Assembly (NCBI GenBank): GCA_007130885.1
Contig: SLRQ01000050.1
Span: 38,661-102,660 of the forward strand
Length of the DNA: 64,000 nucleotides
Source of the DNA: Deltaproteobacteria bacterium
GTDB lineage: Bacteria; Myxococcota; Myxococcia; SLRQ01
Reading direction: 5' to 3'
Made by a program: the position numbers and the translations under genes. The notes under the pieces were generated by a model. The model ran no database searches. It was not told the origin of the DNA and was given only the letters and a program-made list of their open reading frames with translations. Below are positions 1 through 41,669 of this stretch, piece by piece; position 1 is the stretch's first letter, and every line of letters starts with the position of its first letter.

Positions 1-3000
1 TGGCCTCGGCCAAATCGATTGCCGCGATTATGCGGCGGCACTTGGGCTCAAAGAGAGCTCCCATGGAGCAGGTGGGATCGGATGCTATCCACACGCGCTC
101 CAGGCCCTCTGGATGCTTGGAGGTGTAGTTGGTTACAAGGCCCACCACAACGCCGCAGGTGCTCTCCCCGAGAGGTCGATCCGCTGGAATCAATGCTCTT
201 CCATCCGGGTCGAGATCCAGCTCCATGAAACGGCCTCGCACCATGTCCAGGTGCGGCACCGCCCCCCTCGAGCTCGAGTGACCCTCGAGCATGCGCGCAA
301 GCTCGTAGGGGTATACGCAGCCCATGCGGCTGGCGCGGACGACGCGCAGCTCGTAGGGCGATAGGGCGCGGATGGGGACCTTGGAGGGCGTCTCGGTGCG
401 TACCTCCATGCGATGGCGGCCGGGGCGCTCCACCACGAAGACCGTGTCGCTTGTCTCTCCGCTCTCCGAGGACAAGGTACGAGCGCAGACCACGACCTTC
501 TCGAGGCCGAGGCCACGAGCGTGAGCCTCCAGCCGTCGAGCAGCCCTTACGATACCTTGGACATCCAGGCGCATCAGGGGACGTACGTGGAACGTGATTC
601 GGTTCCAGCGCAGGCGCCGCCGGGGGTCGCGGCGTGACTGCTCCTGCCTTATGACCCGCAGGGCCTCGAACCAAGCTCGTTCGAACTCCCAAAGGCTCTC
701 GTCCTTGCCGGCTTCACCCAGGTCATCGGGCACGTCGCCCACCTCGGCCGTTACGAATATTCGCTCATCTTCGGGGTTGCTCCGGGCGTGCGCCCGAAAG
801 GCGACTATTTGTTCAGGCGCCTCGATGCGTTCGAGCTCGAACTCCGAAAGACGCCAAATCTCCAGACGGCGAGCGGTCTCGGGGTGAATGTCGAAGCAGT
901 TGGGGTCCGCCGTGAGAGAGTCACCGAAATGCACCCAGGTTCTATGGTGAAGCGAGTCGGTGCCGTTGGCCCAGCTGACGGTGAGCCGGGCGAGACCTTT
1001 CTCCAGCAACGCGGGAGCAGCGGCGTCGATAGCGTGCCGGATGGCCGGCTCGTCACAGTTGCCAAAAAGTACCAGCTCCGCGATGTCGAGGCTGGTCTCG
1101 GCGGTTATCAGAGCCAGCAGCCGTTCTAAACTGGTCGAGTCGCCCAGAACCGCGAGAAGCATCCTTCCTTCTCTGTCAAAACGAGCGGTGGTAACGCTTT
1201 CGTTCGGTCGGGATTCGGTCAGGAGCCGGATATCCCGGCCTGCGTGGAGCCTTTGGACCATTGCTCGAAGAAGCAGGGGGGCCTCCGGTTTACCCGGGTC
1301 GGCCTGCTCCAGAATGTGCGGAAGCAGGGGATGATGCGAGCCGGCCAGCGCCTGAACCAAGGTTTCATCCTCGCCGGTCGAGCAGCGGCCGGTTCGCCAC
1401 TTTTCGAGCAATTCATGCAAACCCAGTTTGACTTCCTTGCGCCGTTGGACCCAGCGGAACTGTTCGAAGAGCACGTAAGCGGCCTGCCTGGCGTTGTCCG
1501 CGACAGAGGGATGGCTGTGATGCGCGACTTGTGCAACTTTTTCCAGCACATCCGCCAGCCCGGGATCCTCGAAGGTCGTTCCGGACTCATGCAAGGTGAC
1601 CACGACGCGGAGTATGGCGCTCGCCAACCGGTGGCGTGGTGCGCAGTGCGCATGCGCGACCGCGATCCGCCAAAGAGCTTCACGGAGGGCGTCGGAAGGA
1701 TCGAGGGAGCGTACGTCGTAAGCCTCGAGAGCCGGCCGGAGTAGTTCCATCACCGCTTCCGGGCAGCCGCTCTCGCCTTCTTGATGGCGACGGCAAAACT
1801 CGTAAAAGGCCAGCTCGGCGCTCACGGCCGAGGATCTTCCCTTCAGAGGGAGGAGATTCCGGTTGAAAAGCGACTCGACGTCGGCGAAGCACGCGAGCAG
1901 CTCCACGAGCCTCGTCCAGCGTTCCGGATGGGATAGCGACCTGAAAGCTTGTTCGTTACCAAGCAGAGCATCAATCCTATCCACGATGGCGGCCGGCACT
2001 TCATAGCCGAGAAACGCGCCCTTGAGAATGAAGATCAGGTCATCGATGACCTCCGCGGCCTCCACCGGCTTCAGCCTGTCGAGGATTGCCGGAGATGGCC
2101 GGCCTTCCGCAAACAGGCTGGAACACTTCGTTGGTGCGAGACCCGGCGGATGCTTCTCGGTGCTCCCTGATGTCTTATCGGCTTTTCGGGAGGAATCGAG
2201 GGTGTCGTCGAGTATGACCATCGGTTGTCCGGCGCGCACCTGTTGATTCGGCTGGCATAGTACCGATCGGACCAAGCCGGCTTCCCGGGCGAAGACGGGC
2301 ATCTCCATCTTCATGGCTTCCAGTGTCAGCAAAAGGGTGCCGGCCTCAACGGCGTCGCCTTCGCTCACGGCGAGATGGACGACCGTGGCCGGAGCGGGTG
2401 CTGCGATGACTCCGCCGGTAGCGTGCTCGACGTTCTGATGTACACCGTCAACCTCCACCGATATGCCGGTTCGCCCCCTGGAGTAGAGGACCTGATGACG
2501 CCGCCCCGAAATGTGGAGCACGGCGGAGTGGGGTCCGGTTGGTTCCAGGGTGACATCCTTCAGCAAGTCGTCGGGTCCGGCAAGATATCGATTTGGGCCG
2601 ATGGCGTGGACTCGAATATCGTGCACTCGACCTCGGATCCGCAGGTCGATCTCCAGGCCTTCCGGCGAGGGCAGCCGAGTGGGAATGCCGTTCTGGACCT
2701 CGGCGAAGAACTGCTGCAGGGCAATCCGGCGTCGGTCCCGCCAGGTGACGATAGCGGCGGCCAAGAGAGCTTCCATCTGCCGCGCGGGCTCACTGAACAG
2801 GCCATCGGCCGAGGCCCGATCGAGCCAGCCGGTGTCGGCTCGGGCCTCCAGGAAGGTAGGATTGGCGAGGAGCTCCAAGAGAAATGCCTTGTTGGTGGCT
2901 CCATCCTCGATGACGACGGCCATCTCGCGGAGCGCTCTCGTGAGACGAGCGATTGCTTGCCGCCTGTTCGATCCCCACGCGATGATTTTGGCGATCATCG

Positions 3001-4219
3001 AGTCGAACTCGGGGGCGATGGTCATCCCCTCCGCGAGACCAGTGTCGACACGTACTCCAGGCCCCGATGGCGGACGAAAGAGCCGGACGAAGCCGGGACT
3101 GGGAGCAAAGTCTCGTTCGGGATTCTCCGCGTTCAAGCGAACCTCGATAGCGTGACCCCTCGTTTCCGGGACTGCATTCTCAAGCCAAGGAAGGCCCCGG
3201 GCGATGTCTATCTGCGCTTTTACGAGGTCTATGCCCGTTACGGCTTCCGTAACCGTATGCTCCACTTGAAGACGGGAGTTCACCTCCAAGAACCAGGCGG
3301 ACCTTGTTGTCGAATCGTAAAGGAACTCAGCCGTCCCCACACCCTCGTAGCCGGCGATCTCGGCCATGCGAGCGGCCGCCGACTCGAGCTCTCGGGCGGT
3401 TTCGAACGGCAGAACCGGAGAAGGTGACTCCTCGAGCACCTTTTGATGCCTGCGCTGGATCGAACAGTCGCGTGTGCCCAAGGCCTTCGCTTTGCCATCC
3501 GCGCCGCAGGCTAGCTGAACCTCAATATGGTGCGCGCCCGTGACGCACTTCTCGATCAGTACTCCCCCCTCTCCGAAAGAGGCGAGCGCCTCCTGCCTGA
3601 CGGCTTTGAGCGCGGGGACCAGCTCGTTCGGGTGGTCTACCCTGCGAATGCCGCGTCCTCCACCTCCCGAGGATGCCTTCACCATTAGTGGATAGCCGAC
3701 GCTTTCGGCCTGTGCCGATATCCCGTCTTGCGTGGCGTCATCCGGCGCAACGAACCATGGTGCCACCGGCACATCGGCCTTGGCGGCTATCTTGCGAGAA
3801 GTGATCTTGTCCCCGAGCAGTCGCATGGCCTTGGATGACGGCCCCAGGAAGACAATGCCCGCCTCCTCGACTTTTTCGGCGAAGGCGGCGTCTTCGGCAA
3901 CGAAACCCCAGCCCGGCCACACGGCGTCGCAGCGTGCGGCGAGAAGATGTGACAGGACGTGCTCGTGGTCGCAGTAAGCGCTGCAAGGTCCTCGCCTGTC
4001 CGCTTCGGTGCCTCCGCTCGAGGGCCTTCGAAGAGCGGGACCAAGGTGTACGCTCTCATCAGCCATGCGGGTAAACGGAGTGCCTTGGTCGGGATCCGTA
4101 AAGAAAGCCACGGCGGCAAGGCTTGTGCCTCTCTCGATGTTGTACTCGCGCAAGGCGCGGATGAACCGGACGGCGGCTTCGCCTCGGTTGAGGACGGCGA
4201 TACGGTCAAAAGACCTCAT
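1..4219 (-). CDS. Single-chain biotin-dependent acyl-CoA carboxylase (BC-BCCP-CT fusion), 5' complete; C-terminal carboxyltransferase part runs off the window start (>1406 codons in window)
   Basis: Hand translation of the minus strand from ATG 4219-4217 gives MRSFDRIAVLNRGEAAVRFIRALREYNIE...AVWPGWGFVAEDAAFAEKVEEAGIVFLGP...YPLMVKASSGGGGRGIR, a biotin carboxylase ATP-grasp N-terminus. The same frame at 2200-2390 gives ...VSEGDAVEAGTLLLTLEAMKMEMPVFAREAGLVRSV..., a biotinyl domain with the EAMKM motif. The frame is still open at 1-700 (codon tops = 1 mod 3). No ORF in this frame appears in the supplied track, consistent with it lacking an in-window stop. The ATG overlaps the acpS stop (ATGA). 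Confidence 0.75.
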   Translation of the reverse strand, partial: MRSFDRIAVLNRGEAAVRFIRALREYNIERGTSLAAVAFFTDPDQGTPFTRMADESVHLGPALRRPSSGGTEADRRGPCSAYCDHEHVLSHLLAARCDAVWPGWGFVAEDAAFAEKVEEAGIVFLGPSSKAMRLLGDKITSRKIAAKADVPVAPWFVAPDDATQDGISAQAESVGYPLMVKASSGGGGRGIRRVDHPNELVPALKAVRQEALASFGEGGVLIEKCVTGAHHIEVQLACGADGKAKALGTRDCSIQRRHQKVLEESPSPVLPFETARELESAAARMAEIAGYEGVGTAEFLYDSTTRSAWFLEVNSRLQVEHTVTEAVTGIDLVKAQIDIARGLPWLENAVPETRGHAIEVRLNAENPERDFAPSPGFVRLFRPPSGPGVRVDTGLAEGMTIAPEFDSMIAKIIAWGSNRRQAIARLTRALREMAVVIEDGATNKAFLLELLANPTFLEARADTGWLDRASADGLFSEPARQMEALLAAAIVTWRDRRRIALQQFFAEVQNGIPTRLPSPEGLEIDLRIRGRVHDIRVHAIGPNRYLAGPDDLLKDVTLEPTGPHSAVLHISGRRHQVLYSRGRTGISVEVDGVHQNVEHATGGVIAAPAPATVVHLAVSEGDAVEAGTLLLTLEAMKMEMPVFAREAGLVRSVLCQPNQQVRAGQPMVILDDTLDSSRKADKTSGSTEKHPPGLAPTKCSSLFAEGRPSPAILDRLKPVEAAEVIDDLIFILKGAFLGYEVPAAIVDRIDALLGNEQAFRSLSHPERWTRLVELLACFADVESLFNRNLLPLKGRSSAVSAELAFYEFCRRHQEGESGCPEAVMELLRPALEAYDVRSLDPSDALREALWRIAVAHAHCAPRHRLASAILRVVVTLHESGTTFEDPGLADVLEKVAQVAHHSHPSVADNARQAAYVLFEQFRWVQRRKEVKLGLHELLEKWRTGRCSTGEDETLVQALAGSHHPLLPHILEQADPGKPEAPLLLRAMVQRLHAGRDIRLLTESRPNESVTTARFDREGRMLLAVLGDSTSLERLLALITAETSLDIAELVLFGNCDEPAIRHAIDAAAPALLEKGLARLTVSWANGTDSLHHRTWVHFGDSLTADPNCFDIHPETARRLEIWRLSEFELERIEAPEQIVAFRAHARSNPEDERIFVTAEVGDVPDDLGEAGKDESLWEFERAWFEALRVIRQEQSRRDPRRRLRWNRITFHVRPLMRLDVQGIVRAARRLEAHARGLGLEKVVVCARTLSSESGETSDTVFVVERPGRHRMEVRTETPSKVPIRALSPYELRVVRASRMGCVYPYELARMLEGHSSSRGAVPHLDMVRGRFMELDLDPDGRALIPADRPLGESTCGVVVGLVTNYTSKHPEGLERVWIASDPTCSMGALFEPKCRRIIAAIDLAEA
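2306..2320 (-). other. Biotin attachment motif E-A-M-K-M (biotinyl-lysine codon 2309-2311) inside the BCCP domain of the fused carboxylase
   Basis: Hand-translated codons 2320..2306 on the minus strand read E A M K M, flanked by TLLLTLE and EMPVF. Confidence 0.7.
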
Positions 4220-4626
4220 TGCTCCACCCTCTCTAGAATCACGGTGGCCGCGGCGAAGGGTTCATCGTGGCTCAAGGAAACGTGCGCATTACCCACTCCG
4301 AGGCTCTCCGCCGCGCCGGCTACACGGCCGTGTAGTCGTATGGCGGGACGTTTCCATGCGTCGTTGACAATCTCGATTTCGCGAAGGTCGAGTCCGCCGA
4401 AGGTTGGAGCGAGGCCGCGACGAGCGCTGGACCAAGCTTTCACGAAAGCCTCCTTGGCGGCATAACGCACGGCAAGGTGAGGAGCCATGTCGTCACCGGG
4501 GCGGGATTTTGCCGTGCGCAGCTCGCCCGCCGTGAAGGTGCCCTCGGCGAAGTTCGTTCCGGGCTCGCCGAGCTGCTCGCGAAAGCCTCCGAGATGGACC
4601 ACATCGATCCCTACTCCGAGAATCAT
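4216..4626 (-). CDS. acpS: Holo-[acyl-carrier-protein] synthase (AcpS-type 4'-phosphopantetheinyl transferase)
   Basis: 136 aa, MILGVGIDVVHLGGF...AAKEAFVKAW is the AcpS signature. Its start ATG overlaps the FAS stop (ATGA at 4626-4623) and its stop overlaps the carboxylase start. The fas-acpS order matches Corynebacteriales. Confidence 0.85.
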   Translation of the reverse strand: MILGVGIDVVHLGGFREQLGEPGTNFAEGTFTAGELRTAKSRPGDDMAPHLAVRYAAKEAFVKAWSSARRGLAPTFGGLDLREIEIVNDAWKRPAIRLHGRVAGAAESLGVGNAHVSLSHDEPFAAATVILERVEQ

Positions 4627-7600
4627 GCTCCCGCCTCCGTTTTGGCCTCGACCTCATCTCCTGACGGAGTGCTCGAGGATGGTTCGGTATTGGACGCTGC
4701 TCGCGAAAACACCCCTCTAGCGGGATCGAAGCGCGCGTTCGGATCGAGCAGCATGGAGGCTTCCTCGTCGGCTTGCGCGGCGGAACCATCCGGGGCGACG
4801 AAGCGGCGATGGGTTCGCTTGGTGAAAGCTGCTTCCTCGCCCATCCAAACCTTGGCCCTATGCCGCTCGGCTTCCTCTCTTCGATTCGAGGAGCGGCGCA
4901 GCCAGCTTTCGCGCTCTTTGGGGGACATCAGCCCGGCGAAGCAATCGGGATGCAGCACCAGAGCTACTCCGCTTACGTGACCGAAGCCCAAGGTGGTCAA
5001 CAGTCCCGCTCGAAGAGGGAGCGCTGGGCCGGGTCTGAGGGAGTCGTCGCTGAAGGCCAAATGCGAATGCGACCGCATCGCCGGGTCCACGTTCTCGAGG
5101 TTCCGGTTTCCGGGGATGATGCCCGCGGCTAGGGACTGACACAGGCCGATGATCTGCCATGCCGCTGCTCCGCCCTTGGCGTGACCTGTCAGGCTCTTTT
5201 GAGATACCACCCAAAGGGGGTTCCCCGGCGTTCGTTCGAGAGATTCCTGGATGCGGTGGTGAAGGTCGCTCTCATTGGGGTCATTCGCGTTTGTGGACGT
5301 GTCGTGCTTCGAGACGAAAGCGATGTCGTCGGTAGTCAGACCGAAGCGGGCAAGGGCTTCGCCGAGCGGCGAGTGCCGTCCACCGGTTGCGCAGGCGAGG
5401 GCTCCCATGCCGGGCGCGGGAATCGATTTGTGGATGCCGTCCCCGAAGGAGGCGGAGTAGGCGAGAACCCCAAGGACGGGTAGCCCCATTCGAGCAGCTA
5501 CGTCGCCTCGGGCCAGCAGCAGCGTGCCGCCTCCTTGCGCCTCGATGAAGCCACGGCGCCTGATATCGTTCGCTCGTGACATCTGCTCCGGCTCCATGCC
5601 CATCGCTTGCATCTCGCTGCTGGAAGCCGTGGCCCCCATGTCGGCAAAGCCAAGCGCCCCTTCCTTGCCTATGTCGTCGAAGCCTCCAGCGATCACGAAG
5701 TCGGCTTTACCAACTCGGATCTTGTCCATCGCCTCCTCGATGGAGACGTTGGCGGTTGCGCAAGCTCCGACGGGGTGAATCATCGGGCCGTAGCTTCCCG
5801 AAAAGGCCTGAACTGCATACGCGGCGACAACGTTGACCAGGGTCTCTTGAAGGATGTCGCCTTGGCGCTCTTGACCCAAAATATGGTCGAGGTAGAGCCG
5901 GTGTAGGCTTTGCATGCCGCCGATGCCCGAACCCTGGGTGTTTCCGACTCTAGAGGGATGGATCCAGGTGTACAGCTCCTCCGGAGTCAGACCGGCCGAA
6001 AGGAATGCGTCCGCTGTTGATATGAGGTTGAAGATGGTCGCGCGGTCCAAAGTCTCGACCATCTCGGCTGGAACGCCGTAGCGCGCCGGGTCGAAACCGC
6101 GAGGGACGATGCCTGCAACGCTTCTGTCGAAGTCGACCTCCCGCGGGACCCTGACCTCCGTGCCCGCCAGGCGGGTGACGGTCCATCGATCGCTTTGCGG
6201 GTCATAATGAGCTCGCGTGTTCTCGGGATCGTTTTGCAGGAAGCTCCTTGCTTCTTGCTCGGAGGTGACTGGAAACGAGAAGTCGCGCTCGAGCCACACC
6301 TTGGCCAGCACCGGCGCCCGCTCGGGGTCGTAGCCCGCGGTCTCCGGTTCGATGAATCGGATGCCGCTTTGCTTTCTCACGGTGCTCTCATACCGGGCTT
6401 TGATCTCGGTCTCCTGTACCGCCTCTTCGGTTTCCACGTCGATCCATCCCGATGGAGGTCCCGGCTCCCAGCGGACCAGCCCCGTCATCCAGGCGAGCTC
6501 GAGCACGCCGGCCGACGAGAGAGAGTCCTCGGTTTCGATCTCGAAGCGTGGGCGCGCGCTTCCAAACGGACCAACTTCTCCGGCTCCGACTATGACGACG
6601 GTTTCCGATAGGGGCGTTTCAACCGATGTAGGCCACGGCCGGAGCGAAGGAGGGTTGACGGCTTCGGGCCAGGCGTCCGAGCCGGTGACGGTACTGCGGG
6701 GCACGTTCACGGAATCGAGGAGCTCCGCCTCCTTCGACGAAAGAGCTGCAAGTCTCCTCTTCTTGGTGGTGGCCGCGTCGATGCGGCTCCTTATCCGGTC
6801 CACGGTGGCGCGAAGATTGGCAATGCGCCCGATTCCACCGGTGAGGTCGGCTCGCAAGGGTGTCTTGGACGCGGCGGCGCGAAGATCGTCCGTACATAGA
6901 CCGGCTAGGACCAGGCCCATCTCCGCGCTCGAGAAGGTGCGAGCTCCGGTTTCTTCCTCTAACGCCGCGGCGACGGGATCGTTGGCATCCATGAGGCCGG
7001 TACCTCTGACCCAGCCGATTCGAGCACCGCATATCGTAGTTGCGTTACCCCAGGCTTCTTGCTCGCTGTGCCAGCGCGACAAGAGAGTCTCTAGGCCGGC
7101 CTTGCTCTCGGCGTAGGTTCCGTCGCCTCCGAAGTCACCGTGATTCGGTGAAAGCGGAAGCAGAACGTGGCACGGGCTCCGAGGGATCCCAATTCTTGCA
7201 AAACGAGACGCCACGGCGCCAACCAAGCGCTCTACTCCAAGCAGCATGGCGCGCATGGCCGCTTCCGTGTGAGGCGAAAGACCATCCAAGGTGCCGATCT
7301 GCTTCAGAGCGCCGAAGGGCACCAATATGTCCGGAGCAAACGGCCTTTTGGTGGTTCGGACAGTTGCTCCGGCTTGCTCGGTGATCTCGCCGAAGACCCA
7401 GTCCGCGAGAGCGTCGATGTCCCCGACCGATGCCTGGTTGAACGGAACGACGTGAAGCTCGGCCTCGGGAGAAGCCTCGTGCTGGAACAGCCGCCTGTAA
7501 GAGAGCAGTCTGTCCTTGTTGTAAGTGGACGTCGTCAGCAGAACTCGAGCGCCGCCGCGCAGGAGATGGCGAACCAGCTCGAAGGCGATGGAGCCCGGCC

Positions 7601-10600
7601 CGGCTCCAGTGACCAGCGCCGTCCTCCCAGTGAAGTCCAAGGGATGCTTCGTGGCCGAAGCCAGTACTTCCCTGAAGACCGAGTCGAGACGGTCATCGTC
7701 GGGAGAGAGGGCGTCGCCGGAGAGCTCGATCTCGTTTGCGAGAGATTTCAGCGCGTCCGGGCGTGGGTCCGGCCGTTCTTCGTATCTAATCGAGCCGTTT
7801 TCAGCGATCTCGACCCGCGGCCGGGTTGCTTGGACTGGAACGGGCGCCGGCGATAATCGACCGGAGGCGAGCGATTCGAGGGCCTTCGCCAGCTCCTCTC
7901 GACCGTCCAGGCGAGCAAGCGAAGCGTACCAGGATGCCGTGGAGCAAAATCTTTCGGCATCGCGTCCTCTGCTGTGAACGGCAAGTCGCGCCGTCTCCTC
8001 CGCTAGGCGCGAGATGGACAGCCGATCGTTGGAGGCGTCCAAGTAGAGTTTTGCAATATCGCGTTGCGCGAAAGCCCAAGGAGAAGAGAACGCGACGTGT
8101 CGTTTTGACTCGAAGCTGGGCCTCACCATGCGCTCATACTCCGGTCCGTGCTCTGCCTCCCATGTTTCTAGGCGGGTTTCGGGGGACTCTTGCTTGCTTG
8201 TACCGGCTTCGCCGGCCGTAGCGTCCAGCCTGTGACCTAGATGGCCGGCCAGATCGCGAGCCGCGCGCATGAGTGCCCCGTCGGGTCCGGTGAGGCGTTC
8301 CTCGAGTGCTTCGACGGCCGCGGCGTCCACCACCTGCTGTTTCCCATTGCTCGAAGAGCCTCTTTTTCGAAGAGGGAGCCCGTTGCGATCCGCAAGTGTC
8401 TTGCAAACTTCGTCCAGCAGCTCATACGCCGCCGCCTTGCCGGCCGGCCGGAGGCCTGCCAGGGAGCCGAGAGGGCCTCCACGCGCGGATGTCCCCTCCC
8501 GGCTTTCGAGAGCGAGAAGGTCGAGTGCGGAGCTGATGAGTCCCGGGCCTAGGTTCCATTTTTCCGTGAGGTACTTTTGTGCCGCTTTGCGGTTGAGCCC
8601 CGACCGACCAAGAACTCGCCCTATGGCTTCGTCCTGTACTCCTCGGGTGAAGGGGCCGGGACCCATCCATGACCGGGCTCTGTGGGAAATATCCGCCGCA
8701 AGGACGCCAAGAGGACGTTCGGAGGCTCCGTCTATGGTGCCTAGGTTGAACTCGGCACCCAGGTCCACGAGAGCCTGATTGCGGCGCGATGACACGCCAT
8801 CGAATAAGCCGTCGATGGTTTCATCGTCATCGATTTGTTCGAGCCGAAGTCGAGCTTGCGTCGCCATCATGAGCCGGATTGCATCGAGAGGGCTTACCGG
8901 ATGGTCGACCGGCTCGGCGTCAGGCTCGGCACCCGTTTCAATGACGCTTTCGTTCGCTGAACGGGAGGGCTCCGCCACTTCTTCTCTTGTTGCGCCGGGC
9001 TTGCTCGAGGGAGACGGGCAGGCCTCGGTCGTGTCGTCTCCCGGGCCGTCCGAGGTGGGATCGTCGCGGTCGAGGCAGAGTACGCGATCCAGGTCGGCCT
9101 CCGCGTGCAGAATTTCCACTGTGTCGGCTTGGCCGAGATAGCCGAGGGTAGCCCTGGCCATGTTGGTCAAGACGGGTTGATGTTCGACGCCGATTTCGAT
9201 GATTCGCTCTACGCCGAGACCGCCTTCGTCTCGAGAACGAAGGAGCAGCTCTTGAGTCTCAATCCATCGAACCGGGCTTGCGAACTGCCAGGCCAGCAGC
9301 TCCACGAGTATGGTGCGAGCCAGGGCATCGGGCTGCCTGGCTAATTTGTCGTAGTCGTCGAGCACCTCATCCAGGGCCCGAGTTCCCGTCAGCTCGCGTA
9401 TCTCCAGAGCGAAGGAGCGCTCTAGTGAGAACGGAACGGCGAGCAGGTTCGGCACGTAACGGCCTACCAATCGATCGGCGGGAAGCCTGGCGGGAAGAGC
9501 CGCGTCGATGGCATCCCGGAATGCGTCGACTCCGTCGGAGAGCAGCTCCGAGTGGAAGGGCACGTCGATTCCGGGAACCTCGACGTACGGAGGCTTACCG
9601 CCTACCGCAATCTCCTCGAGCGAATGCCGCAGTTTCTCGAGAGCTTCGATTCGTCCGGTGACGGAGTACTGTCGTCCTCGAACATTGTAATTGACGATTT
9701 GCAGAAAGGCGCCGGTGCTATCTCGAATGTCGCCCACGAGCCGCACCGCCATTTCGTGATCGAGGCCGGCATAGTGGGGCCGAATGACCCCCATTCCGTA
9801 GCCGCTCTCCCCGCGGTCGTTTCTAGGAACGAGACCGTGCATTACGAGCCCGCGCTGGTGGACTACCTCGATGAGGGTCTCGAGCGGCAGGATGCCTAGA
9901 AGAGCTCCAAGCGCGTTGTACTCGCCCACACTGTGGCCGCAGGTGACCGCATCCTCCGCCAGAACGCCGCGCTCACGCAGCTCGGCGGCTTGGGCTTGTG
10001 CCAGAACGGCCATGGCTACCTGAGTGAACTGAGTGAGATTCAGTACGCCTTTTGGGTGTACCAGCGAGCGACCGTTCACGACTATCTCGGAAGGGTTATC
10101 GCGGACGATGCGTAGAATGGAGAAACCTAGAGAGCGCCTGGTAAAGGCGTCGGCGCGATCCCAGATCTCGCGGCAGGCCGCGGAGCGGGCATACCCGGCC
10201 ATTCCCATGTCGCTTCGCTGAATGCCCTGACCTGGAAACACATAGGCGGTGCGAGGGGCGGCGATGCGGGCCTCGGAGCGGGCGATCGGCACGAAGTCGT
10301 CGTCGCGGCGGACCTTGGCCGTCAGCGTTACATTGAGATCTCCAGCGGCAGTGCCGGTGCGCACGGCTTCGAGCCGCAAAGGCTCCCCCGGCAGGGCCGG
10401 GGCAAGGAACTCGGTCTCTTGCTTGCGAAGTCGACCTCTATCTCCAGCGGCGATCTCTTCGATCGCGAAGGCGGTAAGACGCGCGGAGGTCCACATGCCG
10501 TGCGCTATGGGCCTTTCCAGGCCCGCGAATCTCGCCATGACCGGACTGTAATGGATGGGGTTCAGATCCTGCCCGGCCTCGGCGAATGCGTGCATGGACG

Positions 10601-13600
10601 ATGGTACGCGAGCGTCGATGGAGGCCAGTGAAAGCGGTGGTGTTTCCTTGGTCTCCTCGCTCGATGAGCCATTCGAAATCTCGGATACGGGAGTGAATCC
10701 AAGAGGCTCGATTGCCGCGAGGATCGGATGGATCCGGGCGCGCGAGCTTGTGTCTAGAGCGATCGTCCCCAGTATCTCCGGCTCCTTGTTATTCGTGCTC
10801 GCTCGCAACAGACGACCGCCGGCCTCGAAGCGGGCTGTCTCGTTTCGCGGGCGAATCTCGCCAAGCAAACACTCCATGGTGAGCCGGTCACCGGCGGAAA
10901 GCTTGATCCCCGGCTTCAGGGAGAGCCAGTCGTGTCCGGAAAAATATTCGGCCGCCGCCTCGTCGGACAACGTGAAAGCCAGCCGTTTCGGCTCGTCGGC
11001 TCGAACGGAGAACCGGGTGTGTCCGAAGGGTTCCCTCACGAAGAACGTCGAAAGGACCAGGGCGGCGAGCTTGCCGTCCTTGTGTATTTCCGACCGCGCC
11101 TGAAGAGTCCGACCATCACTTCGATCCTCTATGCGCGTCAGGCGCGCCTTTACATCGACTTTGTCGCCCACTCGAAGGGGCCATGTTTCGCCGGGTTCGA
11201 ACTCGTGACGAAGATGAACTAGTCGCGAGAGACCGCCGGCGACTTCCTTGTGAGATAGAACGCGGAACAATGGCTCCCAAACAAGAGAGAAGCACAGATC
11301 CGGGGGCGCCTTCGGTGAGTATTGAAGGCCGGTCAAAGCCGCGTAGTCCTTGACGCGTGCCGGCTCCACGAGTTTGCGGTCCCATGCGGTCTCAAATGGC
11401 GTTACCGCGTCTAGGGGACCTCCAAACAGCGAGGCGTGATAGAAATCGCGCAGGCTTTCGGCATGGTCATCCGGATTGGATACGAAAAGGCCCGACCTGG
11501 GGTGCCGGTTCCAGATGAGCACCAGCGGTGGAGGGGAGGCCGCTTGGTCCGGCAGGGTCGCCATTTGAATAGTCAACCGGATGCATTGGTCGCGTCCGCC
11601 CGACTCCGTGCTTGGGAGAAGGTCGACGGTCACTGACTCGAGGCCGTCCGGACAGACATAGCCCAGGGAGCGTCCCGCTTGGTCGACGGACAGCCTCGCG
11701 CCCTTGAGTGTTCTTATCAGCTTGGGTAGGGGGTTTGGTTTCGATAGCCGGCCTTCGCCGAACCTAGGCGCGACGATGAAATCGGCCAAGGGCGCGGCAC
11801 AACGCGCTCTTACGACCCGGATAAATGACTCCGGTGCGGCGCCGGCGGTCGCACGGAATACGACCTCTTTCGGCTCTTCGTCCATTATGAGGCCTTGGGG
11901 AAGAGGGAGGGCCTTGGCCCTTGAACCCGATGCCTTGACGTCTTCGAGAAGAGCGGAATCAAAGCGGCTCAAGAGGTCCGCCACGGGTTCATCGACCTTG
12001 GTTATCCCTCTCACTGCTTCGGGGCCGGGAAGTACGAGAACCTTGTCCGCTTCAAAGCGGGCCTCGTCCTGCAGCCAGAGGGAGTCGGATTTGTACCAGC
12101 GTCTGACGTCTTCATCGATGATGGGCACGAAGTTCACGGGCTTGCCGGGTCTCGCGCATACTTCCCGGATGAACCAGTGTACGTCGGCGGGCCCCGGACG
12201 ACGCATTGCCGCTTCAGGCCAGCGAGCGACGAGGCGGTCCAAGACCGCCTTGGGATCGTCTAGCTCGTCAAGATGGCCCAGCGTACTGGGAACGGTGCGA
12301 CCAGCGGGTGCGAGTCTTGACTCTGCTCTCCAGAGCACGTCCGCGACGCGAGAGCGCCAACCGGCGTCGGGCCAAATGCCGTCCTCATAACGCCCACCCG
12401 AGCCGATCGCCATTAAGGACACCATGCGCTGGAGGACCTCCAGCCAGCTCATTCGGTCTAGGTCGCCGAAGAAGGGCTTTGCGGTTTGGTCGAGGGCTTT
12501 GACTATTTCGTCCCGCCGAGCCGCGATTGCATCGGCGTCGCCTGCTACCTGATCGAGCAGTCGCCCGCATCTTGCGGCCGCGTTGTCGATGTAGTGGATG
12601 TCGGCGGCGAGCTGGCTCTTGCCGGAGGTGATGCCTCCCTCGGACTCGCCGGACAGAACCCAACTTTCACCGCCTGGGGTTTCGACAAGAGCCTGCTTTA
12701 CGGCCGGTGAAGCCTTGGACTCCTTGCAAGCCATTGCGAGCGTGCCAAGAAAAACGGCGTCGACCGGCATGGGATCCAGCTCATACCGGCATGCCCACCT
12801 GCCCGTGAGCAGCTCGACGGCGCGTGCCTCTGTGGCTATTCCGCCGCCGGCGCAGAGGATCACGTTCGGTCTAGAGCGGAGAAGGTCATAGCCGGCAAGC
12901 AGAAGCTCGTCGAGGTCCTCCCACGAGTGGTGCCCTCCGGCTTTTCCTCCTTCCACGTGCACGAAGATCGTGTGCTCCGGAGCCGCTTCAGCTATGCGGC
13001 CCACTTGCTGCACTTGAGCGATCGTTCCGGGCTTGAACGCGTTCAACCAGATGTCATTCGCGCGAAGCTCGTCCAGAAGGGCGCGTGCCTGGTCCGTATC
13101 GGGTATCCCCGCGCTGATGGTTAGTCCGCGAATAGGTGCGCCGGCGGCGCGTGCCTTTTGAACCAACTTCCGCCGGCGAATATGCAGATCCCACAGGTAG
13201 GGGTCCAGATATAGAGCGTTGAATACGATCTCACGGCCGGGGTCCAAGGTTTCGGATAGCTCCTCCATGCGCAGGTTGAACGTTCGCTCGGTTACCTGAC
13301 CTCCACCGGCGAGCTCCGCTACAAAGCCGGCGTTCGCGGCGGCGGCGACGATCTCCACATCGACTGTTGTCGGGGTCATTCCGCCGAGAATGAAGGGAGG
13401 GCAGCCGGTGGCTCTCGTGAAGCTGTTTTCGGCGGTCAAGGCTCCCCGACTGGTCGAAAGCGAGGGGGCGAGTTCTTCATAGCGGATGATGGGCGGTATG
13501 CTTTCGGGAGAGCTTTCCGAGAAGAGACGCTCTCGGCCGGTCGGCTCGGAAAGAGGGATGACCTCGACTCCGCTTCCCTTGAGAATGGAGCGTGTCAAAC

Positions 13601-14852
13601 GGGCCGCGGCGTCGCCCGGGCCCAAATCCAAGATGTGTTGAAGCTCACCATCTCGCCTGAGCTCTCGAATCGCGCGTGTCCACCGTACAGGCTCTATGAA
13701 CTGCATGTTGACTAGGGCACCGGTGAGGTCGGACGAGTCGTTGAGGCGCTCACCGGTGGCGGGGGAGATGCAGTCGATGACGAGGTCGAATGCTTCCACG
13801 GCGAAGCCGATCTCGCGGACGGTTTGGCGCATGGACTGAAGGCCGGATGCCATGGCTGGAGAGTGGTAAGGGCCGCCCACCGGCAGATCCTCCCACGTGA
13901 AGGTTCCGATTTGCCCGGCGAAACGGCCTGCTCGCCGGAGCTTGGTTTCTCGATCGGCCCGAGCCGCGAGCCACTCGTGGAGACGATAAAGAGCCCTGGG
14001 AGGTCCGCTGACGACGAACCGGGTCCTCGTATTATGCAGAGCAATTACTATCGGTGTACCCGGCGATGCACTCTCTCGGCCACCGTCAATCGTCCCAGAA
14101 TCGAGCAGCCTGTTCACCGCTTCGACCCCTTCGGACAGACGCTCGAGCGTGAGGCCCGAGATGGCGGCCATGGGCGCGGTCCCTGATTGTTTCGCGGTTT
14201 CGGGGGCCTTGGCCCAAGACTCAGCCATATGAAGGCCTTGCCAGGCCATGTATCGGACGTAATCCAGAAAGCGTTTCCTCGAGACAATGCCGCGGGGGCT
14301 CTCGGCTATCAGCACAGAGGGCATTACTCCTTGGGAGTGGCCCAAAGAGGCCTTTATCGCGCCCGACTCGAACGCCGCGGAGAGGCCTTCGTTGAAGGCC
14401 GCGATGTATCTTGCCATCTGTGTGATAAAGAGCAGCGGCTGGGATACGAGCGAGGAGGATAGGTAATCCGCTGTGGGGCGAGCGCTCTCATCACGTACCC
14501 ATCGCAGCAAATCGAGGCCTTGGTCCACGAAGCCGCTGGACCGGAACGAGCGCTCGAGGGCCAGGTCGCGAAGAAGCACGTCGGCCGCGTCGACCCATTC
14601 GCGAACGACCGGCGAGTCACGATAGATATCCGAAAGCTCATCGATACAAGAAGCTCCTTGGCCGGCGAATGCGACGGCCGCGGAGGTCTTGCCTCGAGCC
14701 AGTAGGGCCGCCAGCGAAGACTGCAACGGCTTCGGGATGGACTCGTCGGTCTCGGACAAGACCGACTGGTCTACTTTGGTCTCGAATGACCTGCCTCCGT
14801 TTACCATTTCCGCGGCGATGCTCGAACTCTTGTCTCCACGACCGTGACTCAT
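4623..14852 (-). CDS. fas: Type I fatty-acid synthase, bacterial (CMN-type) single polypeptide, 3409 aa: AT-ER(FMN TIM barrel)-DH-MPT-ACP-KR-KS
   Basis: AFAGQG and GHSQG (AT). FILGGMTPTTV...ELAGGGQ...HVEGGKAGGHHSWEDL (fungal/CMN-type FMN enoyl reductase). DLNPIHYSP (hot-dog DH). YVFPGQGIQ and CGHSVGEY (MPT). LVDLGAEFNLG (ACP). TALVTGAGPGSIAFEL (KR). VGACATANVS and GHAKGGAAAW (KS). Confidence 0.9.
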   Translation of the reverse strand: MSHGRGDKSSSIAAEMVNGGRSFETKVDQSVLSETDESIPKPLQSSLAALLARGKTSAAVAFAGQGASCIDELSDIYRDSPVVREWVDAADVLLRDLALERSFRSSGFVDQGLDLLRWVRDESARPTADYLSSSLVSQPLLFITQMARYIAAFNEGLSAAFESGAIKASLGHSQGVMPSVLIAESPRGIVSRKRFLDYVRYMAWQGLHMAESWAKAPETAKQSGTAPMAAISGLTLERLSEGVEAVNRLLDSGTIDGGRESASPGTPIVIALHNTRTRFVVSGPPRALYRLHEWLAARADRETKLRRAGRFAGQIGTFTWEDLPVGGPYHSPAMASGLQSMRQTVREIGFAVEAFDLVIDCISPATGERLNDSSDLTGALVNMQFIEPVRWTRAIRELRRDGELQHILDLGPGDAAARLTRSILKGSGVEVIPLSEPTGRERLFSESSPESIPPIIRYEELAPSLSTSRGALTAENSFTRATGCPPFILGGMTPTTVDVEIVAAAANAGFVAELAGGGQVTERTFNLRMEELSETLDPGREIVFNALYLDPYLWDLHIRRRKLVQKARAAGAPIRGLTISAGIPDTDQARALLDELRANDIWLNAFKPGTIAQVQQVGRIAEAAPEHTIFVHVEGGKAGGHHSWEDLDELLLAGYDLLRSRPNVILCAGGGIATEARAVELLTGRWACRYELDPMPVDAVFLGTLAMACKESKASPAVKQALVETPGGESWVLSGESEGGITSGKSQLAADIHYIDNAAARCGRLLDQVAGDADAIAARRDEIVKALDQTAKPFFGDLDRMSWLEVLQRMVSLMAIGSGGRYEDGIWPDAGWRSRVADVLWRAESRLAPAGRTVPSTLGHLDELDDPKAVLDRLVARWPEAAMRRPGPADVHWFIREVCARPGKPVNFVPIIDEDVRRWYKSDSLWLQDEARFEADKVLVLPGPEAVRGITKVDEPVADLLSRFDSALLEDVKASGSRAKALPLPQGLIMDEEPKEVVFRATAGAAPESFIRVVRARCAAPLADFIVAPRFGEGRLSKPNPLPKLIRTLKGARLSVDQAGRSLGYVCPDGLESVTVDLLPSTESGGRDQCIRLTIQMATLPDQAASPPPLVLIWNRHPRSGLFVSNPDDHAESLRDFYHASLFGGPLDAVTPFETAWDRKLVEPARVKDYAALTGLQYSPKAPPDLCFSLVWEPLFRVLSHKEVAGGLSRLVHLRHEFEPGETWPLRVGDKVDVKARLTRIEDRSDGRTLQARSEIHKDGKLAALVLSTFFVREPFGHTRFSVRADEPKRLAFTLSDEAAAEYFSGHDWLSLKPGIKLSAGDRLTMECLLGEIRPRNETARFEAGGRLLRASTNNKEPEILGTIALDTSSRARIHPILAAIEPLGFTPVSEISNGSSSEETKETPPLSLASIDARVPSSMHAFAEAGQDLNPIHYSPVMARFAGLERPIAHGMWTSARLTAFAIEEIAAGDRGRLRKQETEFLAPALPGEPLRLEAVRTGTAAGDLNVTLTAKVRRDDDFVPIARSEARIAAPRTAYVFPGQGIQRSDMGMAGYARSAACREIWDRADAFTRRSLGFSILRIVRDNPSEIVVNGRSLVHPKGVLNLTQFTQVAMAVLAQAQAAELRERGVLAEDAVTCGHSVGEYNALGALLGILPLETLIEVVHQRGLVMHGLVPRNDRGESGYGMGVIRPHYAGLDHEMAVRLVGDIRDSTGAFLQIVNYNVRGRQYSVTGRIEALEKLRHSLEEIAVGGKPPYVEVPGIDVPFHSELLSDGVDAFRDAIDAALPARLPADRLVGRYVPNLLAVPFSLERSFALEIRELTGTRALDEVLDDYDKLARQPDALARTILVELLAWQFASPVRWIETQELLLRSRDEGGLGVERIIEIGVEHQPVLTNMARATLGYLGQADTVEILHAEADLDRVLCLDRDDPTSDGPGDDTTEACPSPSSKPGATREEVAEPSRSANESVIETGAEPDAEPVDHPVSPLDAIRLMMATQARLRLEQIDDDETIDGLFDGVSSRRNQALVDLGAEFNLGTIDGASERPLGVLAADISHRARSWMGPGPFTRGVQDEAIGRVLGRSGLNRKAAQKYLTEKWNLGPGLISSALDLLALESREGTSARGGPLGSLAGLRPAGKAAAYELLDEVCKTLADRNGLPLRKRGSSSNGKQQVVDAAAVEALEERLTGPDGALMRAARDLAGHLGHRLDATAGEAGTSKQESPETRLETWEAEHGPEYERMVRPSFESKRHVAFSSPWAFAQRDIAKLYLDASNDRLSISRLAEETARLAVHSRGRDAERFCSTASWYASLARLDGREELAKALESLASGRLSPAPVPVQATRPRVEIAENGSIRYEERPDPRPDALKSLANEIELSGDALSPDDDRLDSVFREVLASATKHPLDFTGRTALVTGAGPGSIAFELVRHLLRGGARVLLTTSTYNKDRLLSYRRLFQHEASPEAELHVVPFNQASVGDIDALADWVFGEITEQAGATVRTTKRPFAPDILVPFGALKQIGTLDGLSPHTEAAMRAMLLGVERLVGAVASRFARIGIPRSPCHVLLPLSPNHGDFGGDGTYAESKAGLETLLSRWHSEQEAWGNATTICGARIGWVRGTGLMDANDPVAAALEEETGARTFSSAEMGLVLAGLCTDDLRAAASKTPLRADLTGGIGRIANLRATVDRIRSRIDAATTKKRRLAALSSKEAELLDSVNVPRSTVTGSDAWPEAVNPPSLRPWPTSVETPLSETVVIVGAGEVGPFGSARPRFEIETEDSLSSAGVLELAWMTGLVRWEPGPPSGWIDVETEEAVQETEIKARYESTVRKQSGIRFIEPETAGYDPERAPVLAKVWLERDFSFPVTSEQEARSFLQNDPENTRAHYDPQSDRWTVTRLAGTEVRVPREVDFDRSVAGIVPRGFDPARYGVPAEMVETLDRATIFNLISTADAFLSAGLTPEELYTWIHPSRVGNTQGSGIGGMQSLHRLYLDHILGQERQGDILQETLVNVVAAYAVQAFSGSYGPMIHPVGACATANVSIEEAMDKIRVGKADFVIAGGFDDIGKEGALGFADMGATASSSEMQAMGMEPEQMSRANDIRRRGFIEAQGGGTLLLARGDVAARMGLPVLGVLAYSASFGDGIHKSIPAPGMGALACATGGRHSPLGEALARFGLTTDDIAFVSKHDTSTNANDPNESDLHHRIQESLERTPGNPLWVVSQKSLTGHAKGGAAAWQIIGLCQSLAAGIIPGNRNLENVDPAMRSHSHLAFSDDSLRPGPALPLRAGLLTTLGFGHVSGVALVLHPDCFAGLMSPKERESWLRRSSNRREEAERHRAKVWMGEEAAFTKRTHRRFVAPDGSAAQADEEASMLLDPNARFDPARGVFSRAASNTEPSSSTPSGDEVEAKTEAGA

Positions 14853-15287
14853 GCGATCCCTTTCTAGCGTTTGCCGGCGTTCCTTGTAGCGCGTAAATGC
14901 AGGCGTAGGCCCGGTTGCCTCAAAGAAAACCGACCGGTCAGTCTAGTAGGGGATCACAGTAGCCGGGCGGATCGGTGCTGTCAACAAGGTCGCTGCCTGA
15001 GCCATCCCCTCTATCGTCCGAGTCGCTTGGCGGAGCAATCCCGAGGTATTTCGATCGCTTGGGGAGCAATCTGAAGGCGAGGAAGAGTCGGAGTGCAAAG
15101 TAGGCCGTTTGAATCAGGCATCGGGTGAGTTTGCACCTTTTTTCGAGCGCGCGAGGGAGCGCGGACTCATGGCTTCCCCGCTTCGTCATGCTCGTTCCGT
15201 TTTTCGAGAGCCCGCGGGAGCGCGGGCGTGGCGAGCGCGGAGAGCGGCAGCCGCGGCAGCGATGGGCCCGGCTGTTGTCCTGCTATA
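14853..15287 (-). promoter_or_regulatory. TetR-to-fas intergenic region (435 bp) with two pairs of direct repeats; candidate fas promoter/operator region
   Basis: CGCTTGGcGGAGCAATCc at 15014-15031 and CGCTTGGgGAGCAATCt at 15046-15062. TTTTTCGAGcGCgCGaGGGAGCGCGG at 15138-15164 and TTTTTCGAGaGCcCGcGGGAGCGCGGG at 15200-15226 (62-bp period). The second pair contains the CCCGCGGGAGCGCGGG palindrome. Confidence 0.3.
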
Positions 15288-16448
15288 TCAGGCCTTCTCG
15301 GCCAGCTTCGAAGCCTGTCGCACCAGAGCGGCGAAGGCGGGGACAGGTACCGGTTTGGTGTGAGGAAGATCGAAGTAGCGAGTGCGGAGCCCCTTGCCTC
15401 GAAGCTTGGCCTCGGGGTCCGAGATGGCGATGCCGTTCTCGAAGGTTACGCGCGTGGCATCTTGACGTGGCTCTATTCGGCAAATGACCGTGCCGCCCCT
15501 GATGTAGCCGAGCGCCTTCTTTCCCCTGGTCAGGCGCTCGCTGGCGTCCGGTGCCGACTCGAGAACCAGGCGCCGTAGCGTGAAAACTTGCTCATGGGCG
15601 ATTTGCGGCATCAAAGCCAAGAGAGCCTTGATCTCTTCCTCTTCGACCCGTGCTCCTTCGATGGCGCTATCAGCCTTTTGGTGTCGGGTTAGAGCGGCGG
15701 TTTCGCCTGCATGCACCCGGCGAAACAGGCGGCCGAGCACACCCACGATCTGTGCCCCGGCTGATGAGCCGTCCTCGGTGCCTTCAGCTTCCGAGTGCGG
15801 CTTGATTCCGATTTGACCTGCGGAGGTGTTCACTCTTTGGAGCAGGCGTCCGAGTACGCCCATGACCTGCCCGAACGCCTGCGGGGGCCGGGAGCTGTCG
15901 AACTCCGAGAGCTCCCATGTCAACAAGCCGGTGTAGGCCCCAAAAATGGCTGATGCGACACCTTGCAGCTCGTCTTCGTTGAGCTCGTCTTTGAGGGCTG
16001 GGCGCAGCATTTCGGCTATGGCGGTTCGAGAGCGGCGATGGAAGCGGGAGAGAGCCTCGCGGATCTTGGGGTCGCGCCGGGCGTGCACCGCGAACTCGAG
16101 CCAAAGAGGAACTATGACCCTGCCGCGGCGGCTTTCCCGCTGAAAGGCACGAGTAATGGCTCCCACGTAGTCAGGCTGATCGAGTGCCTCCTGAAACTGC
16201 TCGTACAGCTCGTCCATCACCTCTCGAGTCCAGGTCTCCAGGATGTCTATGAACACCTCTTGCTTGGACTCGTAGTGCCAGTAGAGGCTGCCCTTGGATA
16301 TGCCTGCTTTCTCGCAAATCGCATCCACGCTGGTCTCGTGGTAGCCGCGATCACGAAAGCACCGATAAGCGGCGCTGCGAATCTCCTGCCGCTTCCGGGT
16401 CCCTTTTGTCGAAGTCTTACGTCTCACCCTGGCTCTCTCATCCGCCAT
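15288..16448 (-). CDS. TetR-family transcriptional regulator, 386 aa, with an unusual long C-terminal extension (possible FasR-like fatty-acid synthesis regulator)
   Basis: N-terminal TetR HTH (RQEIRSAAYRCFRDRGYHETSVDAICEKAGISKGSLYWHY). Lies directly upstream of fas on the same strand. Internal repeat GVLGRLLQRV / GVLGRLFRRV. About 150 extra C-terminal residues. Confidence 0.8.
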   Translation of the reverse strand: MADERARVRRKTSTKGTRKRQEIRSAAYRCFRDRGYHETSVDAICEKAGISKGSLYWHYESKQEVFIDILETWTREVMDELYEQFQEALDQPDYVGAITRAFQRESRRGRVIVPLWLEFAVHARRDPKIREALSRFHRRSRTAIAEMLRPALKDELNEDELQGVASAIFGAYTGLLTWELSEFDSSRPPQAFGQVMGVLGRLLQRVNTSAGQIGIKPHSEAEGTEDGSSAGAQIVGVLGRLFRRVHAGETAALTRHQKADSAIEGARVEEEEIKALLALMPQIAHEQVFTLRRLVLESAPDASERLTRGKKALGYIRGGTVICRIEPRQDATRVTFENGIAISDPEAKLRGKGLRTRYFDLPHTKPVPVPAFAALVRQASKLAEKA

Positions 16449-16514
16449 CGTAGGAGATAATGACCTCGCTGGTGGTCCCGGCGCAAGCCGTCAGAACATT
16501 CACGCTAGGCGTGG

Positions 16515-20547: not shown

Positions 20548-20590
20548 ATTTCCTCGTCTTCCGTGGTCAAGCATGAAATGAGAAAGTGAT

Positions 20591-41653: not shown

Positions 41654-41669
41654 CTTTGTGGGGACGGGC

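Follow-up and report, generated by a model that had tools for sequence, protein, structure and literature searches.

A type I fatty acid synthase locus with linked AcpS, single-chain carboxylase and TetR-family regulator genes, most probably from an uncultured member of Myxococcota

Analysis of a 64-kb stretch of contig SLRQ01000050.1 (assembly GCA_007130885.1; the whole stretch, positions 1-64000, is referred to below as the window) identified four co-directional genes on the minus strand, which encode a TetR-family regulator with a DUF1801 domain, a type I fatty acid synthase (FAS-I, or FAS for this protein and its gene), the phosphopantetheinyl transferase (PPT) AcpS and a single-chain acyl/acetyl-CoA carboxylase (ACC), as determined from the list of open reading frames (ORFs) and their translations (Table 1). 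These genes probably form a self-contained lipogenic operon under TetR control in a diderm bacterium that is uncultured and most probably belongs to Myxococcota, with a synthase that would belong to an old and diverse bacterial FAS-I radiation rather than stem from a recent transfer out of Corynebacteriales. Bacterial FAS-I of the fungal type has been described, still in 2024, as peculiar to Corynebacterium, Mycobacterium and Nocardia (CMN) (PMC11714747). An earlier sequence-only reading of this DNA had offered two explanations of the locus, namely horizontal acquisition of FAS-I or a rarely described non-actinobacterial FAS-I system. The latter is favoured here because the nearest relatives of the FAS, of the ACC and of the module as a whole were found in metagenome-assembled genomes (MAGs) labelled Myxococcota.

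Organisation and domain content of the module

The stop codon of FAS and the start codon of AcpS were found to overlap as ATGA (4626-4623), as were the stop codon of AcpS and the start codon of the carboxylase (4219-4216). Both overlaps were read directly and agree with the sequence-only reading, which had further described a complete module within positions 1-16448 with the TetR gene chained to the others by overlap. The genes and their order were found as described, but the carboxylase is cut by the window start, with 1406 of its 1890 residues lying inside. Similarly, the TetR gene does lie upstream of FAS on the same strand, but 435 bp separate the two and no overlap is present. The remainder of the carboxylase was taken from the source contig (ENA ERZ27301263 k141_82886, 148 kb; locus L001), on which the full gene occupies positions 20634-26306.

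Table 1. Features of the FAS-I module in the window; FAS domain boundaries are approximate
Feature	Position in window	Strand	Residues	Basis or remark
TetR-family regulator with C-terminal DUF1801	15288..16448	-	386 aa	Pfam
-35-like hexamer TTGACA, putative FAS promoter	14979..14984	-		Comparative geometry
Candidate operator palindrome AGACTGACCGGTCGGTTT	14927..14944	.		Ends 75 bp upstream of FAS ATG
Single-chain microbial type I FAS	4623..14852	-	3409 aa	Pfam and PDB sequence searches
FAS AT	13923-14672		61-310	
FAS FMN-type ER	11970-13445		470-961	
FAS fungal-like DH N-terminal region			960-1410	
FAS DH	10320-11315		1180-1511	
FAS MPT	9483-10244		1537-1790	
FAS ACP	8517-8906		1983-2112	
FAS KR	6273-7685		about 2390-2860	
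FAS KS	5097-6197		2886-3252	
AcpS, group I 4'-phosphopantetheinyl transferase	4216..4626	-	136 aa	NCBIfam equivalog and Pfam
Single-chain acyl/acetyl-CoA carboxylase	1..4219	-	first 1406 of 1890	Pfam; cut by window edge

The large ORF is assigned, from the comparisons that follow, as a genuine FAS-I of the fungal/CMN type. Searches against Pfam and PDB sequences gave the domain order AT-ER-DH-MPT-ACP-KR-KS, the same as that in the sequence-only reading, and identified no fused PPT domain in this protein. The ER region matched Fas1-AflB-like_hel (E 1.7e-91 over residues 628-961), with further Pfam matches to FAS1_DH, MaoC, Acyl_transf_1, Fas_alpha_ACP, FAS_I_H and the N- and C-terminal KS families. 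Among PDB sequences (phmmer), the best relative of solved structure was mycobacterial FAS-I with 2160 bits, aligned along almost the entire protein in three stretches (query residues 50-978, 1394-2332 and 2389-3375) that leave residues 978-1394 unaligned. Residues 960-1410 were found to match the DH region of the fungal beta subunit only (E 2.4e-10) and no mycobacterial chain.

Active-site motifs were inspected in an alignment of 36 full-length bacterial FAS. Those of the AT (GHSQG171), MPT (GHSVGE1639) and DH (DLNPIH1429-1434) were intact and lie in conserved columns, and the ACP motif GVSSRRNQ, the KR motif YAESK and the KS motifs GACATA3030, KHDTST and TGHAKG were likewise intact. The ER motif GGKAGGHHSWED was invariant across the 36 aligned proteins, and the enoyl reductase is classed on its sequence as a FMN-type TIM-barrel enzyme, not as one of the medium-chain or short-chain dehydrogenase/reductase type. 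A polyketide synthase (PKS) or polyunsaturated fatty acid (PUFA) synthase, which the sequence-only reading had named as an alternative, was rejected on the basis of the FAS-I domain order and of profile scores far below their cut-offs (PfaA, 36.5 bits against 1010; PKS_plus_SDR, 100 against 1740).

The gene following FAS was confirmed to encode AcpS, with matches to the NCBIfam equivalog NF000831 (138 bits, cut-off 124), to TIGR00556 (110.5 bits, cut-off 45.35) and to Pfam ACPS (E 1.8e-16). The next gene was confirmed to encode the fused BC-BCCP-CT carboxylase that had been proposed, which Pfam analysis of the 1890-aa protein resolved into BC (residues 1-470; N-terminal, ATP-grasp and C-terminal families), a BT-like linker, BCCP (Biotin_lipoyl, 605-670), some 650 residues of central region (about 690-1330) and a CT domain that begins near residue 1360 (Carboxyl_trans, 1360-1860, E 4e-37). 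The BCCP carries the biotinyl-lysine motif EAMKME within LEAMKMEMP. The window covers BC, BCCP and the central region, but CT only for its initial ~50 residues.

Comparison of the carboxylase with proteins of known structure showed that the best match of its CT is the CT of yeast ACC (3tv5, E 1.8e-21), with bacterial beta subunits (AccD5/PccB) scoring 6e-10 or worse. A profile of the carboxylase family, whose matched region spans BT-BCCP and part of the central domain, gave yeast 5csk (267 bits) and human ACC1 as best matches and also matched the isolated central-domain entry 5i6e. Pfam ACC_central was weak in the carboxylase itself (19.5 bits, below the cut-off of 23.2), and close relatives carry this family (PF08326). 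The CT and central parts of the predicted protein thus most resemble ACC of the eukaryotic type, not bacterial AccA/D or PccB.

A multidomain acyl-CoA carboxylase with homodimeric structure and activity on acetyl- and propionyl-CoA has been described from Saccharopolyspora erythraea (SACE_4237; Livieri et al. 2019, PMC6491548). Its orthologues were listed in actinobacterial families only, and the name 'actinobacterial homodimeric ACC' was proposed. The family of the window carboxylase returned more than 2000 database matches, of which the nearest were from Myxococcales/Myxococcota MAGs (57-65% identity), followed by Acidobacteriota, Eisenbacteria, Planctomycetota and Actinomycetota. Judged from these matches, the family extends far beyond the actinobacterial families named in that study. 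On a separate long-read contig (L004, ENA ERZ25039546 contig_148971, 6765-9749), which is ridden with frameshifts, a multidomain ACC frame was observed to end in an ACPS domain, with KR and PKS_DH fragments upstream. This may represent a different ACC-PPT linkage beside a PKS-like synthase.

The regulator, its candidate operator and the proposed role of the operon

The regulator was found to consist of an N-terminal helix-turn-helix (HTH) domain (residues 23-67; TetR_N, E 1.9e-16), a TetR_C_6 domain (98-175; E 1.2e-7) and the DUF1801 domain (286-379; E 1.1e-6). It had been put forward in the sequence-only reading as a FasR-type regulator, a designation that did not hold, as it scored 48.3 bits against NCBIfam NF053731 (cut-off 330) with a match confined to residues 13-102 around the HTH. 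It is probably a TetR protein different from FasR with an analogous role. In 27 related loci, a homologue (39-64% identity) was identified that is encoded upstream of FAS and in the same orientation, and the long form bearing DUF1801 was identified in L010, L012, L015, L022 and L027.

An 18-bp near-palindrome, AGACTGACCGGTCGGTTT (consensus AGACYGACYRGTCRGTCT, core AGAC-N6-GTC), was found between the TetR gene and FAS and is the sole such site in the window, where 0.05 would be expected by chance. About 22 related loci have a site with at least 16 of 18 matches to AGACYGACYRGTCRGTCT, and in each case it lies either in the interval from the TetR gene to FAS or a short distance upstream of the TetR gene. 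The core was also found to be enriched about seven-fold in the 1.1-kb zones upstream of FAS (51 matches in 56 kb, compared to 120 in 881 kb elsewhere). It was present in 27 of 28 loci with a TetR gene and absent from the loci of FAS group B (one of the groups defined by phylogeny below), which are without a TetR gene. The palindrome co-occurs with the TetR gene and is likely to be the operator of the TetR-DUF1801 protein, in which case the two would form a repressor/operator pair.

In 13 loci, the window among them, a TTGAC(N) hexamer was identified 37-44 nt upstream of the palindrome, a spacing by which the palindrome would cover the -10/+1 region of a putative FAS promoter. A further short palindrome, AGACCGACTGGTCT (14759-14772, plus strand), was noted within the first 100 bp of the FAS coding region. 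It resembles the operator half-sites and may be a second, weaker site for the regulator, or may be due to chance.

Taken together, the operon is proposed to operate as follows. The single-chain carboxylase would convert acetyl-CoA to malonyl-CoA, while AcpS would place the phosphopantetheine arm on the ACP domain of FAS. The latter would perform the whole elongation cycle within one polypeptide, which by homology may assemble as a barrel-shaped hexamer, and would probably load acetyl and malonyl groups from CoA via AT and MPT and release acyl-CoA. The TetR-DUF1801 protein would bind the palindrome just downstream of the -35-like hexamer, presumably repressing the operon, and a lipid-derived ligand, most plausibly a long-chain acyl-CoA, would release it.

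In mycobacteria and corynebacteria, FAS-I works alongside other systems, and cultured myxobacteria form mainly iso-branched fatty acids via type II FAS. The FAS of the window may be a specialised and separately switchable secondary system beside a type II FAS, serving storage lipid, envelope lipid or a natural-product starter. This is a possibility of some weight, albeit less likely than not. The operon has a dedicated regulator and a dedicated source of malonyl-CoA, as is typical of pathways expressed under certain conditions, a CMAS-type methyltransferase lies beside FAS in some relatives (L002), and fungal FAS paralogues such as the sterigmatocystin FAS (P0431/P0461) make starters for PKS. 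However, no PKS, nonribosomal peptide synthetase, wax-ester or triacylglycerol genes adjoin the module in the window or in the recovered flank, and the neighbouring genes are not conserved between genomes. Furthermore, the synthase retains every catalytic centre needed for a full reducing cycle, and the homologous ACC of S. erythraea is an essential housekeeping enzyme (PMC6491548).

Distribution, phylogeny and host of the module

A protein search with a 701-aa ER-DH segment of the FAS returned partial proteins of up to about 1200 aa. Those of Myxococcota, Deltaproteobacteria and Polyangiaceae MAGs (48-63% identity) ranked first, followed by actinobacteria. An alignment of these relatives was then used as query in a scan of one genome per GTDB species, by which 573 FAS relatives were identified; the same scan with the single FAS protein as query gave no match, so the genome of the window is not one of the species representatives. 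Related loci were analysed using tblastn with the window proteins, the taxon labels being those of the submitters. Among the best 80 of the 573 relatives, about 45 were from MAGs labelled Myxococcota, Myxococcales, Polyangiales, Bradymonadia or Deltaproteobacteria or from unclassified MAGs. The others included one Planctomycetota MAG, one Thermoleophilia MAG and some Acidimicrobiales, followed by Mycobacteriales. Three loci labelled Enterobacterales/Enterobacteriaceae (L009, L011, L016) are probably mislabelled.

The loci end 10 kb after the match, such that the first 1000-1200 residues of their ACC genes are visible. The order FAS-AcpS-ACC, preceded by the TetR gene in the four-gene arrangement of the window, was found in at least 21 loci of species-level MAGs that are of Myxococcota type or unclassified, and in one Actinomycetota MAG (L070). 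The carriers of the module also include JARACJ01 'Proteobacteria bacterium DTSAM18', a record without a MAG flag that may stem from a culture. Wherever a related locus extends far enough, AcpS was found to follow FAS, in Myxococcota-type as in actinobacterial loci. FAS-AcpS without ACC was found in the Planctomycetota and Thermoleophilia loci and in all Mycobacteriales loci. No gene flanking the module in the window recurred beside it in any related locus, which marks the four genes TetR-FAS-AcpS-ACC as the conserved unit. For the same lack of synteny, neither the cluster of LolA-like and MacB genes upstream nor the PHB-depolymerase-like esterase downstream was retained as a part of the module.

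L070 (CAVPQM010000025.1) is the sole locus with an actinobacterial label to have FAS-AcpS-ACC among those examined, and its FAS groups with actinobacteria (Acidimicrobiales, Thermoleophilia) in a tree of the KS region. Either the linkage to the carboxylase extends beyond Myxococcota, or this is a mixed bin. In a Deltaproteobacteria MAG (L002/L037, GCA_006226565.1, SBGO01000658.1), the gene for the CMAS-type methyltransferase (8540-9391) lies immediately upstream of FAS, at the place where other loci have the TetR gene.

The FAS proteins of Myxococcota type were found to be 3250-3575 aa in length (stop to stop), compared to 3073-3164 aa for those of Mycobacteriales. In a neighbour-joining (NJ) tree of 2821 columns, the FAS of the window fell in one (group A) of three deep Myxococcota-type groups (A, B and C), inside a clade of FAS from MAGs labelled Myxococcota and outside the actinobacterial clade. 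A search for outgroups, in which residues 960-1410 were compared to 1.84 billion representative proteins, returned eukaryotic FAS (Cyanophora, a chytrid, fungal beta subunits and an oomycete) as well as unusual long bacterial FAS, P0384 and P0435 among them.

P0384 is a 3662-aa FAS-I encoded at 8001-19415 of JBFOMN010001514.1 (L087, GCA_040960375.1) and followed by AcpS, in bacterial surroundings. It carries the fungal FAS_meander and FAS1_thioest_ins domains and is more fungal-like than the FAS of the window. P0435 is 4077 aa in length.

A second NJ tree was built with 100 bootstraps from 1483 columns of the AT-ER-DH-MPT half of the protein, this being a distance-based tree of MAGs with submitters' labels. 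Eukaryotic FAS formed a clade in 100 bootstraps, and eukaryotic FAS together with P0384 and P0435, which branch next to them, were split from other bacteria in 100. Actinobacterial FAS joined with group A in 100 bootstraps, formed a clade alone in 92 and joined with groups A and C in 91, and the support for all Myxococcota-type FAS as one clade was 0. On these distances, actinobacterial FAS-I is nested inside Myxococcota-type diversity as sister to the group of the window. Comparison to the fungal alpha and beta subunits gave 767 and 648 bits, respectively, for the window (group A), 737 and 600 for L042 (group C), 881 and 739 for L036 (group B) and 628 and 574 for a Mycobacterium FAS (L083).

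A recent horizontal acquisition of a Corynebacteriales fas-acpS block by a Gram-negative host, with the carboxylase added, would be consistent with the fas-acpS linkage common to all Mycobacteriales loci examined, with a mycobacterial FAS being the best relative of solved structure, with the sister position of group A to actinobacterial FAS and with the multidomain ACC having been first described in actinobacteria (PMC6491548). Such an event is nevertheless considered very improbable. The FAS of the window shares only 31-35% identity with those of Mycobacteriales over the N-terminal 600 aa and about 50% over the KS region, and it is longer by 250-340 aa, with the extra DH-region segment fungal-like. 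The module was found in more than 20 species-level MAGs with FAS of three deep groups. The GC, GC3 and codon usage of its four genes lay inside the range spanned by the 24 remaining genes of the window, with none of the difference from the rest of the 64 kb that the sequence-only reading had suggested looking for. The exclusion from the actinobacteria plus group A clade of groups B and C and of a Planctomycetota sequence fits either a transfer in the reverse direction or a very ancient event. The distance analyses thus speak strongly against recent acquisition from Corynebacteriales, which the sequence-only reading had entertained, and for the opposite polarity, from Myxococcota-type bacteria to actinobacteria, they provide only a suggestion.

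A broader scenario can be framed in which Myxococcota-type bacteria would be the main and older bacterial home of FAS-I, the CMN FAS a trimmed offshoot transferred from a relative of the window's group, and the operon the counterpart, possibly the source or sister, of the eukaryotic ACC1, FAS and PPT kit. This is put forward as speculation and is considered unlikely.

The sequence-only reading had noted flanks of Gram-negative character, and diderm markers were indeed identified, namely a LolA_like protein, two MacB/FtsX permeases and a LolB1-like protein. Based on these and on the relatives of the module, the host appears to be a diderm and most probably a member of Myxococcota. No tRNA and no Rfam RNA was found in the window, and no lineage-specific NCBIfam family was found in ten flanking proteins.

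Several observations weigh against the operon as interpreted here. FAS-AcpS was found without ACC in about a quarter of the Myxococcota-type loci (L013, L028, L033, L042, L044, L047 and L054), which indicates that the system does not depend on the carboxylase. For the regulator, FasR orthology was rejected (NF053731 below cut-off), and its ligand and the sign of regulation are for this reason guesses. A consensus sigma-70 scan called no promoter upstream of FAS, the -10 element being poor. Furthermore, the host taxonomy of the contig is based on the module and on diderm markers of a general kind, and RecD shows about 52% identity to mostly unlabelled metagenome proteins, the few named relatives being from Bacillota/Dethiobacteria MAGs.

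That the arrangement is an assembly or binning artefact, with an actinobacterial fragment misjoined to Gram-negative DNA, is scarcely credible: the contig does come from a short-read metagenome assembly (k141) and related records bear odd and unreliable labels (the three uncultured Enterobacterales/Enterobacteriaceae records above), but composition and codon usage run without a break across positions 1-64000, identical proteins are recorded by NCBI and ENA (148,016-bp contig), the same gene order occurs in more than 20 MAGs of different studies, including a closed 9.29-Mb chromosome (L041, OW818691.1), and some independently assembled carrier contigs span several hundred kb.

With regard to the surroundings of the module, the genes directly upstream of the TetR gene (16515-21973, minus strand) encode the LolA_like protein, the two MacB/FtsX permeases, an ABC ATPase and a 460-aa orphan, and the LolB1-like protein is encoded at 57247-58212 (plus strand). 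A recC-recB-recD cluster (41631-53730) contains, between recC and recB, genes for a 340-aa orphan (45485-46507) and a 478-aa radical SAM protein (46494-47930). The named relatives of its RecD (Bacillota/Dethiobacteria, about 50% identity) are odd for a Myxococcota-like contig. A DUF4388 protein (54356-55600, minus strand) was found to have an MshE-type cyclic-di-GMP-binding motif (NF053729, 48.6 bits, cut-off 38). In a 975-aa protein (35036-37963, plus strand), the first 400 or so residues form a class I mannose-6-phosphate isomerase N-terminus, and the remaining 570 or so gave no family match.

Outside of the window, a 332-aa alpha/beta hydrolase is encoded at L001:26388-27386, on the same strand and 82 bp past the ACC stop codon, with a sub-threshold likeness to the polyhydroxybutyrate (PHB)-depolymerase esterase family (TIGR01840, 53.7 bits, cut-off 107.85). 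It is a possible fifth gene of the operon, yet it is absent after ACC in L005 and L006. Two adjacent B12-binding radical SAM genes (L001:27588-30230) converge on the module; their best matches are weak and are to C-methyltransferases and a 'lipid biosynthesis B12/radical SAM' family.

Significance and comparison with known systems

Every component of the locus is of a known kind. Apparently undescribed are the coupling of these components within a single operon, the pairing of the regulator with its likely operator, a FAS architecture that leans towards the fungal type and the breadth and depth of the system in Myxococcota. A literature search identified no paper on FAS-I or multidomain ACC in Myxococcota, an absence that is no proof of novelty. 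The results show that FAS-I and single-chain ACC are common in uncultured bacteria labelled Myxococcota, where they are physically and translationally coupled under a dedicated putative repressor. On sequence grounds, the structure of the Myxococcota-type FAS appears to fall between that of the 'minimal' enzyme of mycobacteria and that of the fungal enzyme, and these FAS may offer natural intermediates for study of the gain or loss of scaffolding in the 2-MDa barrel. The operon is also a concrete and testable candidate for the bacterial ancestry of the eukaryotic ACC and FAS pair. Were the Myxococcota-type origin true, it would bear on how eukaryotes gained bacterial-type fatty acid synthesis and on the proposed myxobacterial contribution to eukaryogenesis. 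A compact three-gene cassette leading from acetyl-CoA to acyl-CoA could, in addition, serve engineering.

Comparison with the FAS-I of CMN bacteria (M. tuberculosis Rv2524c and M. smegmatis FAS; PDB 6GJC, 4V8V) showed that the domain order on a single chain, the FMN-type TIM-barrel ER and the active-site motifs are shared, as are the lack of a fused PPT and the separate AcpS gene immediately downstream. In contrast to CMN FAS-I, the FAS of the window is longer, of low N-terminal identity and from a diderm host, its ER-to-DH region is detectably similar only to that of fungal beta and its scores to both fungal subunits are higher than those of the Mycobacterium FAS. Moreover, a linked carboxylase and a dedicated TetR gene are present at the window locus and at no Mycobacteriales locus examined.

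Fungal FAS (Saccharomyces, Thermomyces and Candida alpha6beta6; PDB 2UV8, 4V58, 6U5V) has the same domain order and shares the ER, DH, MPT, ACP, KR and KS families with the FAS of the window. Residues 132-1730 of the fungal beta subunit align to residues 39-1593 of the latter as one unbroken stretch, including the DH N-terminal region that is reduced in mycobacterial FAS. The fungal enzyme is formed of two chains, whereas that of the window is one chain without the C-terminal PPT domain, and the fungal FAS_meander and FAS1_thioest_ins were not detected in it by Pfam.

The carboxylase resembles both SACE_4237, to which it is likened here on the published description, and eukaryotic ACC1 in being a single chain of about 200 kDa with the arrangement BC-BCCP-central-CT and with CT and central regions related to eukaryotic ACC, not to AccD/PccB. 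It differs in being translationally coupled to acpS and a type I FAS. The regulator is similar to FasR of Mycobacterium and Corynebacterium in that a TetR-family HTH protein is tied to a type I FAS and a palindrome lies in the fas promoter region, and it differs from FasR in its extra DUF1801 domain and in the position of its gene directly upstream of FAS on the same strand.

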